A stretch of DNA of 40,713 nt, taken from assembly GCA_041497675.1 (NCBI GenBank), contig JBGQGY010000018.1:1-40713 (forward strand). Reading direction: 5' to 3'. Shown in pieces: positions 6,001-15,000 of this stretch. Position 1 is the first letter of the stretch, and every line of letters begins with the position of its first letter. A program made the position numbers. The DNA is from a bacterium. Its GTDB lineage: Bacteria > Sysuimicrobiota > Sysuimicrobiia > Sysuimicrobiales > Humicultoraceae.

Positions 6001-9000
6001 GCTGGCGGCGCACATCGCCCTCTGTCATCACGAGCGCATGGACGGGACCGGCTATCCACGGGGACTTCGCGGGGAGGAGATCCCGTTGCCCAGCCGGATC
6101 GTGTCGGTGGCGGATGCGTTCGACACCATCACGCACGACCGCCCCTACCGCAAGGCCCTCTCCACTACCAAAGCCTGGGAGATCCTGTGGGCAGGCGCGG
6201 GCACGCAATGGGACAAGTCCGTGATCGACGCCCTGGCCTCCCTTGGGCCCGATGGGCTCAAGGAGGCGATCCACGAACCGCGCGCCCGCCGCTCGGCGCG
6301 CCGGGTCCAGTCTCCGGCCTATTCTGATCGCCGGTAATCGGCCGACCCGCGTACCCACATCATGGCGCCGGCCAGCGCCGCCTCGTAATCGTGGGTGGTC
6401 GTCCCGTACGGCTGGTGGAGCGGGCCGAACGTCACCGACACGCGCGCCAGGCGGATCATGCGCGCACCCATCGGAAAGACGCGATCTGACCCCACGATCG
6501 CGGCCGGCACAAACGCCACGCGCGCGTGCGCGGCCACGACCGCGGCGCCGCGTTGCGGGGGCGCCGGCTCGGGGCTGATCCGGCCCTCGGGAAAGATCAC
6601 CACCTTCCGGCCGTCCTGCAGCGCGCGCACCGAGTCCTTGATCGCGGAGAGATCGGCTTCGCCGCGGTGAACCGGGATGCACCCGTAGGTTCGCATGACC
6701 CAGCCGACAAACGGTATCTTGAGGTACTCGGCAGCACCGACCATCAGCACCCGCTCGGGCACCGCCGCAGCCATGAACAACGGGTCGAGCGCGCTCAGGT
6801 GGTTGGCGACGATGACCACCGGGCCCGTCGGATACCGATCCAACCCCTCGACGCGAAAGCGGAAGAGCAGTTTGAGCAGCGGCACGACAATGATGCGGGC
6901 CAGGCGGTACAACGGGGTTTCTCGCGGCCAGTCGCGCCGCCCGACGCTAGCTCTCCCCATGCCCGCCAGCGGACGGCTCGCGTCGCGACCGAATCGCGGT
7001 GCGCCCGGCGCGGACGGCGTGCCGGCCCACGTGCAATGTCCGCCGCATCGCCCATCCCAAGGGACCGAACACCGTTTGCACGATCCCCGAGAGTCCGGAC
7101 ATCACCACGCGAATCCACCGCAGGTGGCGGCCGAGGGCCTGCAGCCAGGGGAGCCGGGCGTACATGATGGTCACCACGATGATGCTGAAGGAAATGACAA
7201 ATTTCAGACCGTGGGAGATGTGCACGCCCAGCAGTTCCTCAGCAAACAACTCCAGCCCGATGGCCATGACCAGCAGATAGGCGGCCTCTTCCAGGATGGG
7301 TTCGCGCTCGATCAGTCTGGTGAAGACGCCCGCGGCAAACCGCATGGTCAGGATGCCGAGGAACACCCCCGTCAGCACCACCCACATCACGCGCGAGAGG
7401 GCGACGGCGGCGACCACGTTGTCCAGGCTGAAAGCCAGGTCGGCCAACTCGACGTTGAGGACGACCAGCCAAAAGGAGCGTGCGCCCGCCGGGACGGGTT
7501 CGGCGCCAATCCCTTCCTCTTCTCTGGCTTCGGCCGCGAAATGCGAGAACGCGAGGTAGATGAGATAGAACCCGCCGAGCAGCAGCAGCCACTGGTTGCG
7601 GACCACGTGTTCGGCGACAAAGAGCATGGCCCCGCGGCCGACATACGCGCCGACCAGCCCGGCCCGCAGCGCCGCGCCCTGCTGCGCGCCCAGAAGCCGA
7701 TGGGCCGGCTGTTGGAGGAAGCGCAGCGCGCCCGGCCACGGGATGGGGTCGTGTCGCGGCAGCTGTGAGACCATCGCCCCCAGCACCGCCGCGTTGTCGA
7801 TCGAGAGGATGCCCTCCAGATAGATCAGCTGGAGGACGATGATCGAGGCGGCCCAGACACCACCCCAGGACACGTGGGTCATCCAGTCAAACGGCACGTC
7901 GGGTCACCGCAGAGGTTTTCGCAAACACCCCATCATCATATCGTGACCGAGGCCGGACGGTTAGACCCGGGCCGGCGTCCCTCTACGAGGGCGGTTTGTC
8001 GTTGACGATATCGCTTTCAAACGGAATTACGCCTGGGATGATCCACTTCTGCCACATCTGGTCGATCTTGTGCTGGAAGTACTCGAGATCGTCGTCGGTG
8101 AAGTGCGCGAAGCGGCCCTGCCGCAGCAGATACTCGCGCACGGGCTTGCGCCGACTCCGCTTCTCGGCGATGCCTCTGGTGCGGCCGTAGAGTTTCAAGT
8201 GATGGTTCTCGACCTCGTAGAGCGGCCAGATACCGCACTCGACCGCCAGCTCGCCGAGCTCGTGCGACTGGATCGGGTCGTAGTCCCACCCTTTCGGGCA
8301 GGGGTCGAGCGAGTGGATGTACGTCGGACCGCCGATCGTGAGCGCCTTGCGCACCCGGTTCATCATCTCCACGGCGTACGACGCGCAGACGGTGGCCACG
8401 TACTTGCACTCCGGGTGCCCGGCCGCCAGCATGCCGGCGACGTTCTTCTTCCACCGGTTATGGAGGATGCGCTTCACCTTGCCCGGCGGGCTGAACGTGG
8501 TGTGCGCGCCCCATGGGGTCATGCCCGAGAGCTGGATGTCCGTGTTGGCATACGACTCGTTGTCGTACATGAGGATGAGGAAATTGTAGCCGGTCTGCGT
8601 GAGCGCCGCCGAGATCGCCGACAGGCCCATGTCGGCGCCGCCGCCGTCACCGCAGAAGGCGATGACGTTGATCGCCTCGGATGGGATCTTCCCCTTTCGC
8701 ATCAGCACTTTGAGGGCGGCCGCGGTGCCAAGCCCCGCAGAGCCGCTGCTCCCCAACTGCGTGTGCATCCACGGGACGACCCACGACGTGCTGTAGTAGG
8801 TGGTATTCGCCACGTACATGCAGCCGGTGCTGCCGAGCACGATGGTCCGCGGGCCGGCGGCCTTGACCATCAGCTTCATCACGAGCGCCGACTCGCAGCC
8901 CTGACACGTGCGGTGCCCGGACGTGAAATACTCCTCGAGGGGGACCTTCTTGACCCCTTTAAATGGATCGAGGACTGGAACGGGATAGGTCTCGATCGCG

Positions 9001-12000: not shown

Positions 12001-15000
12001 CGCCCTGGCGGGGTTCGAGCAGTCCGGTCATTTGGAGCGTGCGGATGGCGTCGCGCACGGAGGTACGGCTGACCCCAAGCGCTACGGCCAGCTCACGCTC
12101 CGGCGGCAGCTTGTCGCCGGGCTTCAGGCGGCCGTCGGCGATGAGTCGACGGATGCGCGCCGCGACTTCCTCATAGACCTTGCTGCGGCGCACGGGCTCT
12201 AAGGCTAATTCTTGAGTCATGGCCTCAAGATTGGTCCAATGGTCCGACATCTGCCGGTAGGGCCATTATTGCGCCGGCGGACGGGGGTGTCAACAAACCT
12301 GGGACCGACCAGCGACCAGGAAACGGGGCGGGCGGGGCCCAATGTGACATATGTGGAGCGACGACTTGTGCCGGGTCTGGTGTTGATCATCGTCGGTGGG
12401 ATCCTGCTGCTGGCGAGACAACAGGTGCTGAGCGGGGATCTGACGGTGCTGCTCATCGGCGCCTTATTGCTCGCCGTTTACACCGCCAGCGGAGCCCCCG
12501 GGTTGTTGGTCCCCGGCGCCATCCTCACGGGACTCGGCGCGGGTATCGCGCTTCGGGAACGGCTTGGTCCGGAGAGCGCGACGGTCCCGTTGGGGCTGGG
12601 TTTGGGCTTCGTACTGATCTATGTCATCGACCGAGCCCGCGGCGGGCCAAAGGGCGGCTGGTGGCCCCTCATCCCCGGTGGAATCCTGGTCGCGGTCGGA
12701 CTGATGCAGGCGGCGAGGGCCGACGGACCCCTGAAGGCGCTGGCGTCGTGGTGGCCGATCGCGCTGATTCTCCTGGGGATCTGGCTGATTGCCCGGCCAA
12801 GAGCAGCGGCCTGACCGCTCAGGACAACGGCTTCAGGCCGACGTAGAGCCCGCGACCCATTAACCCCTCGGGATCGAACGTCGCCTCCAGACCGGCGTCT
12901 CGGAAGGCGGCCAGGTACTCCTCCACTGTGAAAACCGCCAGGTCGTGACGTTCGGTGAAGTGTTCGACGCCGCCGGCTGTGGCAACCAGATAGTGGAAGT
13001 GTAGGGTCACGACCCGGCCGTCGACCCCGCTTACGTTCACTCGCGCGACCTTCAGATCCGGGCGGTCGACCAGCACAGCGCCGACATGGTCGGGGATGAC
13101 CTCCTCGGGTCTGATGAACGGCTCGGCGATCAGCACCCCGCCGGGATGAAGATGGCGCGCCATAGTATGCACCGCCTGGTGCAGCATCGCGACGGTGTGT
13201 GCGTAGGCGATCGCGGAGAAGAGACAGACCACCGCATCGAACCGGCGGCCCAGGTCAAACGACGTCATGTCCGCCTGGTGGAGCACCAGGTCCGGATGTT
13301 TCTTGCACGCAATGGCCAGCATCTCTGGGCTGAGATCGAGGCCCTCGACGGCGTAGTGCTCGCGCAGGTAGGCGAGATGCCCGCCCGTCCCACAGGCGAT
13401 GTCGAGCAACGCGCGCCCCCGGGTGCGTTTGTGTTGTTGGATCAGTTCGTGGACGTGCTGAGACTCGCGGGCGTAGTCCTTGCCCGCGGCCTCGTAGATC
13501 AAGTCGTAATAGGCGGCTGATCGCGCGTAGTCCCCGTGCATGCGGTCAACACGCGACCGAGAACAGATGCCACTCGCCGGACACGCCTTTGAGCCCGTGG
13601 ACTCCTCGATCTTCGAATTGGATACCTGACCCGGCCACGAGATCTTTGACCGTGCTGGAGACCAGGACTTCACTCGCGCCGGCGTAAGCCGCGACACGCG
13701 CGCCGATATGGACGGCGATCCCGCCGACTCTACCACCCATCACCTCGCACTCGCCCGTGTGCAGCCCGATGCGGACCTCGATCCCAAGCGCCCGGACGGC
13801 AGCGACGATCTGGCACCCGCAGCGGACGGCCCGGGCAGGCCCATCGAATGTCGCAAGAAACCCGTCGCCGGCCGTGTCGATTTCGCGCCCGAGGAACCGA
13901 ACGAGTTCCCGGCGCACCACCGCATAGTAGCCATCCAGCACATCTCGCCACCGCCGGTCGCCGAGTTGAGACGCGCGCTCCGTCGACCCGACGATATCGA
14001 TAAACATGACTGTCGCGAGGACGCGATCCGGTTCGGGCCCACGTCGCACCCCGGTCAGGAACTCCTCGATCTCATCGAGCATTGTGTCTTGATCACCGAC
14101 CCACGGCAGGTGGTCATCTCCGGGAAGTTCTACATACTTGGCGCCGGGGATCTGCCGGGCCATGTATCGCGCATGCTCGGCACTCAAGGTGCGGTCACCC
14201 GTGCGATGGACAATGAGCGCGGGTACACGGATCGTCGGGAGGACGTGCCGTACGTCAATAGCGGCGTTCATCCGCGTGAGGGCGAGCGCAGCGCCGGGAC
14301 TGGTGCTCATTCGTAGATACCTGGCCCACCAATCTTTGAAGCGCTCGTCGTGTACCATGCTGGGTGCGCGACCCGCCAGCCCGACGGGGCCGCCCCATCC
14401 GTCGCGGATCTCCTGCATGAATTGCTCATGCACGTTCTCAGTCGGCGCGAATGTGTAGTCGGGCGCCCAGAGCCTCCTCGCGTAAGCGCCAACCATGATC
14501 AAGGCCGTCGTCCGCTCGGGGTAGGTGGCCGCAAAGAGCGCGCACATCGGCCCGCCCTCGGAGATGCCGATGAGCGCGGCCCGCGGCGACCCCACGGCGT
14601 CCATCACCGCGCGGACGTCGTCCATCCGCTGCTCCAGCGTTGGCAACTCGGTCTCGGGAACGCGATCGGACAATCCGGTGCCCCGCTTATCGAAGAGGAT
14701 GAGGCGGGTAAACGAGGCGAGGCGGTTGAGAAATCGCGCAAACGAGGGCTCTTCCCAGAAATAGTCCAGGTTGGAAACCCAGCCCATGACGAAGACCAGG
14801 TCGAGTGGGCCGTTCCCGACCACCTGGTAGGCGATGTTGACGCCGCCGCTCTTCGCATACTTCGTCTCGGGCTGCATTGCCGCGGTTCTTCCCCGTGCCG
14901 GTACAAACTCCTGGATGGGCCAGGATCTCAAAAAACGACTCAGGGCGGGTGTGTACCCCCGCCCCGAGCGATCTGTCTATCCCCCGTCGTTACGCCGACC

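Follow-up and report, generated by a model that had tools for sequence, protein, structure and literature searches.

The window, that is, the whole stretch of DNA that was analysed (40,713 nt), carries on its minus strand an operon in the order regulator, gamma/delta, alpha, beta (positions 7983–12250, from ORF calling). The following features were assigned:

12265–12293, minus strand: predicted sigma-70-type promoter, TTGACA-17-AATAAT (11 of 12 consensus matches)
12230–12247, minus strand: putative GntR/FadR operator, a GGACCA repeat plus an ATTGG-A-CCAAT palindrome, with boxes recurring upstream of kin operons
11483–12250, minus strand: GntR/FadR regulator (Pfam GntR and FCD both above cut-off)
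10248–11477, minus strand: fused gamma-delta subunit, with a two-[4Fe-4S] ferredoxin domain and a domain III that lacks the glycine-rich CoA loop (best PDB match 5c4i_B)
9024–10247, minus strand: alpha subunit with YPIRP, Arg42, Glu70, Arg120, RALDDPGAF, Ala127 and Gln223 (best PDB match 5c4i)
7983–9008, minus strand: beta subunit with the ThDP-binding GDG, four cysteines, Asn155 and Asp157 (best PDB match 5c4i_C)
6947–7897, minus strand: TerC/YkoY-family membrane protein (TIGR03716, 176.6 bits versus a cut-off of 138.5)

The genome-wide survey's note had placed a three-subunit enzyme at 7983–12250; the three subunits are present, and the coordinates also take in the regulator gene.

A promoter search over positions 6200–12900 gave two sites versus a shuffle mean of 1.0, and of the 102 regions ahead of related operons, 56 hold the −35 heptamer CTTGACA on one strand or the other. 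Boxes of the TGGTC/GACCA type occurred in 59/102 upstream regions (shuffle mean 4.4, maximum 9), a pattern picked post hoc from sequences already viewed and counted over kin operons that are not independent. They also precede the operons L137–L139, whose enzymes are of the Asp116 type (see below). Positions 12230–12247 are thus probably the operator of the GntR/FadR regulator, a homolog of which is encoded in 73 of 80 loci and whose nearest NCBIfam models (NanR, LldR, PdhR, GlcC) all scored under cut-off. Its translation probably begins at the ATG at 12220, preceded by GAGG: the longer ORF would start some 15 bases past the −10 box and overlap the operator. The TerC/YkoY gene follows the operon at a distance of 85 bases; such a gene is near the operon in just 3/80 loci, there after tctCBA, and it is a local neighbour rather than a core part. 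Rfam gave no match in the whole window, and therefore no riboswitch is assigned ahead of terC. A hairpin at 7976–7993 was rejected as operon terminator, as its T-run sits on the plus strand.

Pfam searches over the operon matched POR_N, PFOR_II, TPP_enzyme_C and Fer4. ThDP-binding domains, proximal cysteines, domain III and the ferredoxin domain are all found, which on sequence grounds puts the enzyme in the superfamily of 2-oxoacid:ferredoxin oxidoreductases (OFORs). The closest structure is the oxalate oxidoreductase (OOR) of Moorella thermoacetica (MtOOR; 5c4i/5exd/5exe; NF045790–NF045792; here type A), followed by the pyruvate:ferredoxin oxidoreductase (PFOR) 9bt4. For alpha, the E values reported by the survey were reproduced (2e-96 for 5c4i versus 8.1e-66 for 9bt4); for beta they were 2.7e-87 versus 2.6e-61 for PFOR, and for gamma-delta 5c4i was best with 2.3e-19. 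Like MtOOR, the enzyme and its kin (type B) consist of alpha, beta and a fused gamma-delta subunit without the glycine-rich CoA loop, and type A operons are likewise headed by a GntR regulator.

The NCBIfam OOR equivalogs NF045790, NF045791 and NF045792 gave 84.4, 377.2 and 342.9, all under their cut-offs of 230, 500 and 590. Type A alphas from genomes G203 and G006 pass (588 and 575), and their betas miss 590 (444 and 550). The alpha is 43% identical to that of an acidobacterial type A enzyme, and the CDC48-like ATPase and GltD-like flavoprotein that go with type A in the loci examined do not accompany type B. In a quick tree, the YPIRP types A and B+C and the YPITP enzymes fell on opposite sides of a branch with an SH-aLRT support of 99%; type A and the outgroup have long branches there, and P0136 and its kin (E 1.4e-152 to 5c4i) stood in for MtOOR itself. 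By these comparisons, type B is a sister clade of OOR, placed outside the NCBIfam OOR equivalogs, and is best described as a variant of the rare oxalate-to-CO2 enzyme already known from Moorella.

Named database entries mostly call type B a "pyruvate ferredoxin oxidoreductase", and the PorA model NF040682 scored 356.7, near the OOR model. That type B is just a CoA-dependent pyruvate or 2-oxoacid:ferredoxin oxidoreductase of the usual kind is nevertheless hardly credible. The four-subunit-type PFOR (9bt4; NF040682, NF008819) shares the fold family and the ThDP and [4Fe-4S] motifs, but it is CoA-dependent and has YPITP and the glycine-rich CoA loop, and the enzyme of the window scores under the cut-offs of the PFOR models. 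In this enzyme the Thr of YPITP is Arg, and the gamma-delta N-terminal loop reads RGIFQKT (RGVVMNK in OOR, GRGGYG in the PFOR gamma of contig C113 of the same genome). The residues that we take to make up the CoA-binding P-loop of domain III are absent, while three OFORs of this genome have glycine-rich loops. A role for this P-loop is described in excerpts of PMC8091585. The genome already encodes four enzymes with YPITP, in ORFs of OFOR-type setting on contigs C20, C23, C113 and C134, as the survey had stated (those on C20, C23 and C113 also match alpha by blastp), and the gene context consists of oxalate genes.

The survey had further claimed that both substrate arginines are retained and that Asp116 of OOR is replaced by Ala, and the alignment bears this out: Arg42 (codon 10122–10124) corresponds to Arg31 within YPIRP, Arg120 (9888–9890) to Arg109, and Ala127 (9867–9869) to Asp116. 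Equivalents of Glu59, Phe117, Gln211 and beta Asn143 also align; the roles of OOR residues other than Arg31, Arg109 and Asp116 are presumed here. Besides Asp116→Ala, type B differs from MtOOR by Pro113→Asp and beta Gly145→Asp, in the plug loop of domain III, and in the C-terminus of delta, which is longer. The switch loop RALDDPGAF, which includes Ala127, is identical in 110/110 loci (some overlapping), in 119 of 120 protein matches and in all 115 more distant matches. Beta Asp157 is specific to the clade: 77 loci gave a beta match, and all 73 of them that cover the site have Asp; Gly is found there in OOR, in PFOR, in 3/3 Asp116-type betas and in the PFOR beta of the same genome. Residues 147–162 of gamma-delta form a near-invariant loop unlike the OOR plug loop around Glu154, whose role we presume, although the alignment between types is weak in this region; the GAEG stretch of the OOR loop is echoed in a type A locus (L111). 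According to excerpts of PMC5020499, YPIRP is unique to MtOOR, Arg31 binds oxalate, and Asp116 is important for a "bait and switch" mechanism; the plug loop is named there too. The clade-wide Ala in place of Asp116 and the replaced plug-loop sequence speak against oxalate as substrate; as a guess, beta Asp157 or alpha Asp124 could assume the role of Asp116. The cysteines of the proximal cluster (beta 35, 38, 63 and 237) and two CxxCxxCxxxC motifs at gamma-delta residues 281 and 311 are present. Three subunits, a gamma-delta fusion and three clusters thus match MtOOR, and the cysteine motifs of all three clusters are near-invariant.

Evidence independent of the active-site motif comes from gene context and co-occurrence and supports the survey's claim of an oxalate-type substrate. 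Of 68 loci that extend 1 kb or more downstream, 53 have a gene for an OxlT-like oxalate/formate antiporter directly after beta. All 13 linked transporters tested passed TIGR04259 (9 of 12 also passed an L-lactate transporter model, at lower scores). Equivalents of OxlT Arg272 and Lys355, a basic pair to which two carboxylates bind (PMC10070484, in excerpts), are present in 70/71 loci. OxlT antiport requires formate, which is not a product of the proposed reaction; this counts against it. Formate could instead be made from oxalate and feed OxlT, if without Asp116 the intermediate left by the first decarboxylation were protonated and released. This would explain the tight antiporter link where oxc is not found, and the acid-base residues are unlike those of OOR. 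We regard it as very improbable, because the cysteine motifs of all three clusters are retained; in addition, Asp116-type OOR adjoins OxlT as well (L137, L138), and therefore the link requires no formate.

Upstream, genes for an oxalate-CoA ligase-like and a PanE-like protein were found in 24 of the 59 loci that reach 6 kb or more upstream; panE2 codes for an oxalyl-CoA reductase according to excerpts of PMC12686821. The top four PDB matches of the ligase-like protein are oxalate-CoA ligases (1e-127, versus 1.7e-73 for the next kind). In G203 type B lies in tandem with an Asp116-type alpha whose score exceeds the NF045791 cut-off (588 versus 500, L123 copy), and in G120 an Asp116-type OOR alone occupies the slot between ligase, PanE and GntR genes and OxlT. 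G225 and G247 have ligase, PanE and OxlT genes without any OOR, and therefore these genes appear to form an uptake and assimilation module. Since malate synthase is also clustered with enzyme, ligase and reductase (8/59 loci), the enzyme might run in reverse, from 2 CO2 to oxalate and, by ligase and PanE2, to glyoxylate as a new entry of carbon fixation. The chance of this is close to negligible: the CO2/oxalate couple is much more negative in potential than common ferredoxins, the module exists without OOR, and the genome studied here has no ligase. Autotrophs have been reported in Sysuimicrobiota, as excerpts of PMC11604079 state, which would suit that direction.

Among 151 genomes of one Acidobacteriota order (that of G094), 15 have YPIRP enzymes, 14 of these type B; OxlT was found in 17, including all 15 carriers, and the ligase in 16, including 14/15 carriers (six unlinked), all counts being from related genomes and hence not independent. 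Oxc above cut-off was found in none of these 151 genomes and none of 94 Sysuimicrobiota genomes, and frc above cut-off in none of five genomes tested, nor was frc found in the genome of the window. OxlT/ligase genes are sparse in Sysuimicrobiota, a further point against the oxalate reading: OxlT passed the cut-off in 8/94 genomes, all with type B (four directly downstream), and ligase-like matches occurred in 5/94 (40–48% identity). The genome of the window gave no match for OxlT or TctC, and none for the ligase at E ≤ 1e-90. Both types, A and B, are present in 2/94 Sysuimicrobiota and 4/151 Acidobacteriota genomes, and 7/151 of the latter hold two type B copies, which could mean different substrates.

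The survey had raised oxamate as an alternative and pointed to allFGH genes; for AllG, three matches were indeed found in this genome. Type B would then convert oxamate from purine/allantoin breakdown via AllFGH to CO2 and carbamate, or act on a C2 analogue such as glyoxylate, leaving oxalate to type A. The changes at Asp116 and in the plug loop and the co-occurrence of both types would agree with this, as would AllG in 65/67 type B carriers versus 19/27 non-carriers among Sysuimicrobiota (in G001, G002, G018 and G043 it is 9–21 kb away from the operon) and an FmdA-family amidase gene near the operon in 10/80 loci. However, AllG is near-universal in Sysuimicrobiota regardless (84/94) and absent from all 151 Acidobacteriota genomes, including 14 type B carriers, and the linked transporter retains two basic residues for two carboxylates. 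Loss of the Asp would make the site more positive and therefore suit a dianion, and the amidase could convert oxamate to oxalate, a step that fits the oxalate reading. The alternative is thereby weakened for Sysuimicrobiota and appears unlikely.

Type B was detected in 67 of 94 Sysuimicrobiota genomes and 25/31 genera (E < 1e-120, 58–100% identity), a table tally that takes in the unpublished G017 and G024. The wide presence claimed by the survey holds with these figures in place of 21/31 genomes at 58–90%; its restriction to one soil phylum does not. At least 410 GTDB stretches carry type B, by record labels also from Acidobacteriota, Myxococcota, NC10, Binatia, Nitrospinota, Dehalococcoidia, Tectomicrobia and Rubrobacter. 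The carriers include hundreds of uncultured soil bacteria, and no cultured one was identified among those found. A plasmid search returned two records at 33–34% only. RNA rows had small shares only (0.05–0.10) and were counted neither way for expression. The phylum had been called aerobic; excerpts of PMC11604079 describe a full aerobic chain in facultative anaerobes.

On the basis of context and co-occurrence, which stand apart from the active-site motif, we favour oxalate and consider type B probably a CoA-independent ThDP/three-[4Fe-4S] oxalate:ferredoxin oxidoreductase of a distinct clade. By analogy with MtOOR, Arg42 and Arg120 would hold the two carboxylates, and ThDP attack and two decarboxylations would follow, yielding 2 CO2 along with a pair of low-potential electrons that leave via the delta clusters. 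In Acidobacteriota, where the enzyme is flanked by OxlT-, ligase- and PanE-like genes as in Oxc/Frc/OxlT oxalotrophy with its ligase/PanE2 branch, an OxlT-type carrier would bring oxalate in. Type B would give energy and reductant instead of Oxc/Frc, with oxidative, CoA-free splitting of the C–C bond, and ligase and PanE2-like reductase would lead to glyoxylate and on to malate synthase or a transaminase. The genome of the window showed neither assimilation genes nor a dedicated importer, so that there oxalate would serve solely as a source of electrons and CO2. A soluble ferredoxin would probably carry the electrons to NAD(P)H and on to respiration, or else to the other OFORs. The Wood-Ljungdahl pathway was rejected as a sink for this genome (no TIGR00316 match at 98.6% completeness), and unlike the Moorella system the host has no acsB/cdhC match. 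Its formate dehydrogenase alpha scored 345 versus a cut-off of 666.

Among the papers listed, our literature search found no description of the type B clade, no mention of oxalate for Sysuimicrobiota/CSP1-3 and nothing joining acidobacterial oxalotrophy with a ferredoxin oxidoreductase; most subscription papers and supplements (MAG tables) lie outside its scope. Excerpts of two reviews link OOR to Moorella (PMC11045627) or leave it out as poorly known (PMC8062136). Oxalotrophy surveys rely on oxc, frc, oxdC and oxlT; in main-text word searches, "oxidoreductase" and "oor" are absent from PMC10192776 and "ferredoxin" from PMC13409138. Type B may therefore be an oxalate-eating route overlooked by standard marker-gene surveys. 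It is a more tentative proposal, and one we hold with considerable doubt, that type B is an oxygen-tolerant OOR with a rebuilt catalytic switch, one that has lost alpha Asp116 and acquired beta Asp157, and the main oxalate-oxidising means of abundant uncultured soil bacteria (Acidobacteriota, Sysuimicrobiota, NC10, Binatia and others). If true, it would be a third bacterial route of soil oxalotrophy, CoA-free and ferredoxin-reducing. The clade offers a natural variant probing the need for Asp116 and, for CO2/oxalate electrochemistry, a candidate OOR whose hosts respire oxygen. Should type B oxidise oxalate, uncounted organisms and a PFOR-labelled gene would account for much of the oxalate sink in soil, with a bearing on the oxalate-carbonate carbon pathway that oxc/frc/oxdC surveys would miss.

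The enzyme is encoded behind a GntR/FadR regulator, in a window that also holds genes of common, unrelated families:

12293-12265, minus strand, predicted near-consensus promoter
11483-12250, minus strand, GntR/FadR regulator
10248-11477, minus strand, fused gamma-delta subunit
9024-10247, minus strand, alpha subunit
7983-9008, minus strand, beta subunit
13546-14931, minus strand, alpha/beta-hydrolase fused to an adenylate/guanylate cyclase domain (common family, unrelated)
25039-27816, plus strand, NB-ARC/TPR regulator (common family, unrelated)
37890-40693, minus strand, hydantoinase/oxoprolinase A/B pair (common family, unrelated)

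A repeat box just after the promoter recurs in 59/102 upstream regions of related operons, a pattern chosen post hoc.

The genome-wide survey's note had named Moorella oxalate oxidoreductase (OOR) as the nearest enzyme. Its structure, 5c4i, was indeed the top PDB match of alpha (E 2e-96, versus 8.1e-66 for the pyruvate enzyme PFOR, 9bt4), beta (2.7e-87; PFOR 2.6e-61) and gamma-delta (2.3e-19; PFOR 1.2e-10). Alignment to 5c4i also bore out that both substrate arginines are kept (OOR Arg31 is alpha Arg42, in YPIRP; Arg109 is Arg120) and that OOR Asp116 is Ala127 here, while four other ORFs of this genome, in a setting of 2-oxoacid:ferredoxin oxidoreductases (OFORs), carry YPITP. The P-loop of domain III is described as binding CoA in PFOR (PMC8091585). 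A glycine-rich loop is present in three OFORs of the same genome, whereas gamma of both OOR and the window enzyme is without it. That the enzyme is an ordinary PFOR is very improbable.

Among 50%-identity representatives, YPIRP enzymes show three loop types: RTLDPPGDF (type A, the Moorella-like, Asp116-type OOR), RALDDPGAF (type B, including the window enzyme) and the rare RALDDPGNF (type C). RALDDPGAF is unchanged in 110/110 loci, 119/120 close matches and 115/115 further matches; the loss of Asp is thus a clade trait, and decay was rejected as its explanation. A quick IQ-TREE alpha tree (66 rows, with protein P0136 standing in for Moorella OOR) gave three groups: A (100), B+C (97) and the YPITP enzymes (99). 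Two proteins with FPIRP and RALDDPGNF (P0134, P0275) form a third YPIRP-like type, sister of type B.

Where OOR and PFOR have a beta Gly, type B has Asp157 (73/73 loci covering the site), and its domain III plug loop differs in sequence from that of OOR. Type A pairs Asp116 in alpha with Gly145 in beta, whereas type B pairs Ala with Asp; this complementary pattern suggests that the catalytic acid may have moved, the two clades amounting to one comparison. NCBIfam OOR models were the top profile matches, all under cut-off (377/500, 343/590, 84/230). Because type B departs from the Moorella family in Asp116, plug loop and HMM cut-offs, we set it apart as an OOR variant, predicted to be OOR-like in working yet outside that family proper.

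In type A loci of Acidobacteriota (L123:10417-15379, L136, L137, L138, L139), an Asp116-type OOR with a free gamma subunit occurs with a 610-aa GltD-like FAD/NAD(P) flavoprotein with Fe-S domains (NF009410 509, cut-off 516), possibly forming an NAD(P)-linked oxalate dehydrogenase. A CDC48-like AAA ATPase, confirmed by Pfam in two loci (L111:3450-5525, L137:12011-14269), lies between regulator and type A OOR; ORFs of like size fill that slot in L138:3685-6009 and L139:4111-6441, and none was seen at that position in type B operons. The Moorella OOR cluster presumably has a CDC48-like gene as well.

Gene context points to oxalate as the predicted substrate. In 53 of 68 loci with at least 1 kb of downstream flank, beta is directly followed by a gene resembling the oxalate/formate antiporter OxlT, in which Arg272 and Lys355 are described as binding the two carboxylates (PMC10070484). 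Equivalents of both are kept in 70/71 OxlT-like proteins; in a lactate transporter structure the Lys is absent from the aligned position. TIGR04259 was passed by all 13 proteins tested, and a lactate-carrier model also by 9/12 transporters. Cleavage of oxalate with formate release is improbable. OxlT exceeded the cut-off in only 8/94 genomes of the window's phylum; all eight have type B, with OxlT directly downstream in four. The window's genome gave no match to OxlT, TctC or the oxalate-CoA ligase-like gene. A TctC transporter gene replaces OxlT in 9/10 loci closest to the window. In L001-L010, L113, L116 and L118-L121, covering much of the phylum, tctCBA (tripartite tricarboxylate transporter), a candidate oxalate importer, follows beta where OxlT might stand; it is absent between beta and terC in the window.

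Upstream, in loci with at least 6 kb of flank, we found the ligase with a PanE-family gene (24/59), a class V aminotransferase (20/59) and malate synthase (8/59). The ligase's top PDB matches are oxalate-CoA ligases, and the panE2 product is described as an oxalyl-CoA reductase (PMC12686821). In genome G120 the slot in ligase-PanE-GntR-[OOR]-OxlT is filled by an Asp116-type OOR; in G203 the Asp116-type OOR and type B stand in tandem. The OxlT, ligase and PanE context and type A in the same slot back the oxalate reading of the survey's note.

In an Acidobacteriota order (that of G094, probably Terriglobales; 151 genomes), 15 genomes carry a YPIRP enzyme, 17 OxlT (including all 15 carriers) and 16 the ligase (including 14 carriers); oxc and AllG were each found in 0/151. 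We give no statistic, since the genomes are related to one another and many of the linked genes share an operon. The two further OxlT genomes, G225 and G247, hold ligase-PanE-OxlT alone, which shows that these genes make up a module for uptake and assimilation, with regulator plus OOR as an insertion. Their three-gene operons (L161:8503-12311, L162:8909-12750) are without OOR, regulator and oxc, and could let oxalate be assimilated, no route for oxidising it being evident. At L127, L128, L130, L132, L133 and L135, all in Acidobacteriota, a second type B copy adjoins genes for malate synthase and isocitrate lyase, malic enzyme, PPDK, PEPCK or a transhydrogenase, neighbours fitting glyoxylate assimilation.

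Oxamate or glyoxylate as substrate is unlikely. In favour of oxamate, its route marker AllG occurs in 65/67 type B carriers of the window's phylum versus 19/27 non-carriers; the survey's AllG was recovered in the window's genome on contigs C37, C4 and C221. AllG matches occur in 84/94 phylum genomes, often in several copies. Near 10 of 80 operons (L011-L013, L016, L018, L020, L025, L040, L057, L076) lies an acetamidase/formamidase-family gene, a possible oxamate amidase that could turn purine-derived oxamate into an oxalate supply.

For the window's organism, oxalate would be an additional source of electrons, with respiration or ferredoxin-dependent carboxylases as putative acceptors. This is suggested by the genome's match to heme-copper oxidase subunit I (E 8.5e-192, slightly below the CoxA cut-off), its lack of an acsB/cdhC match and the absence of oxc and frc above cut-off. 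A reverse run, fixing CO2, is the least probable reading.

In the GTDB species set, close relatives are encoded on at least 410 stretches; the best 80 of these share 75-98% identity and are mostly from Acidobacteriota. In the window's phylum the wide spread proposed earlier was found in 67/94 genomes (58-100% identity; unpublished G017 and G024 included), and in the alpha tree the window enzyme groups with records labelled Ca. Humicultoraceae (Sysuimicrobiota). NC10, Binatia, Nitrospinota, Deltaproteobacteria, Dehalococcoidia and Tectomicrobia have named type B matches too, each under the label pyruvate ferredoxin oxidoreductase, and one type B cluster also holds a partial protein from Rubrobacter. 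Six genomes combine types A and B; seven have two type B copies. The survey's phrase "aerobic soil phylum" agrees with the abundance reported for soil, but the phylum is not simply aerobic, being reported as facultatively anaerobic (PMC11604079, PMC11962464). The string "oxal" is absent from the main texts of both papers, and in the part of the literature covered we found no description of the type B clade, in line with the survey, whose paper search listed no report for the phylum.

The chemistry itself is already known; new are its unexpected taxonomic spread and, in type B, a testable change at the active site. Surveys of soil oxalate may have a blind spot here.
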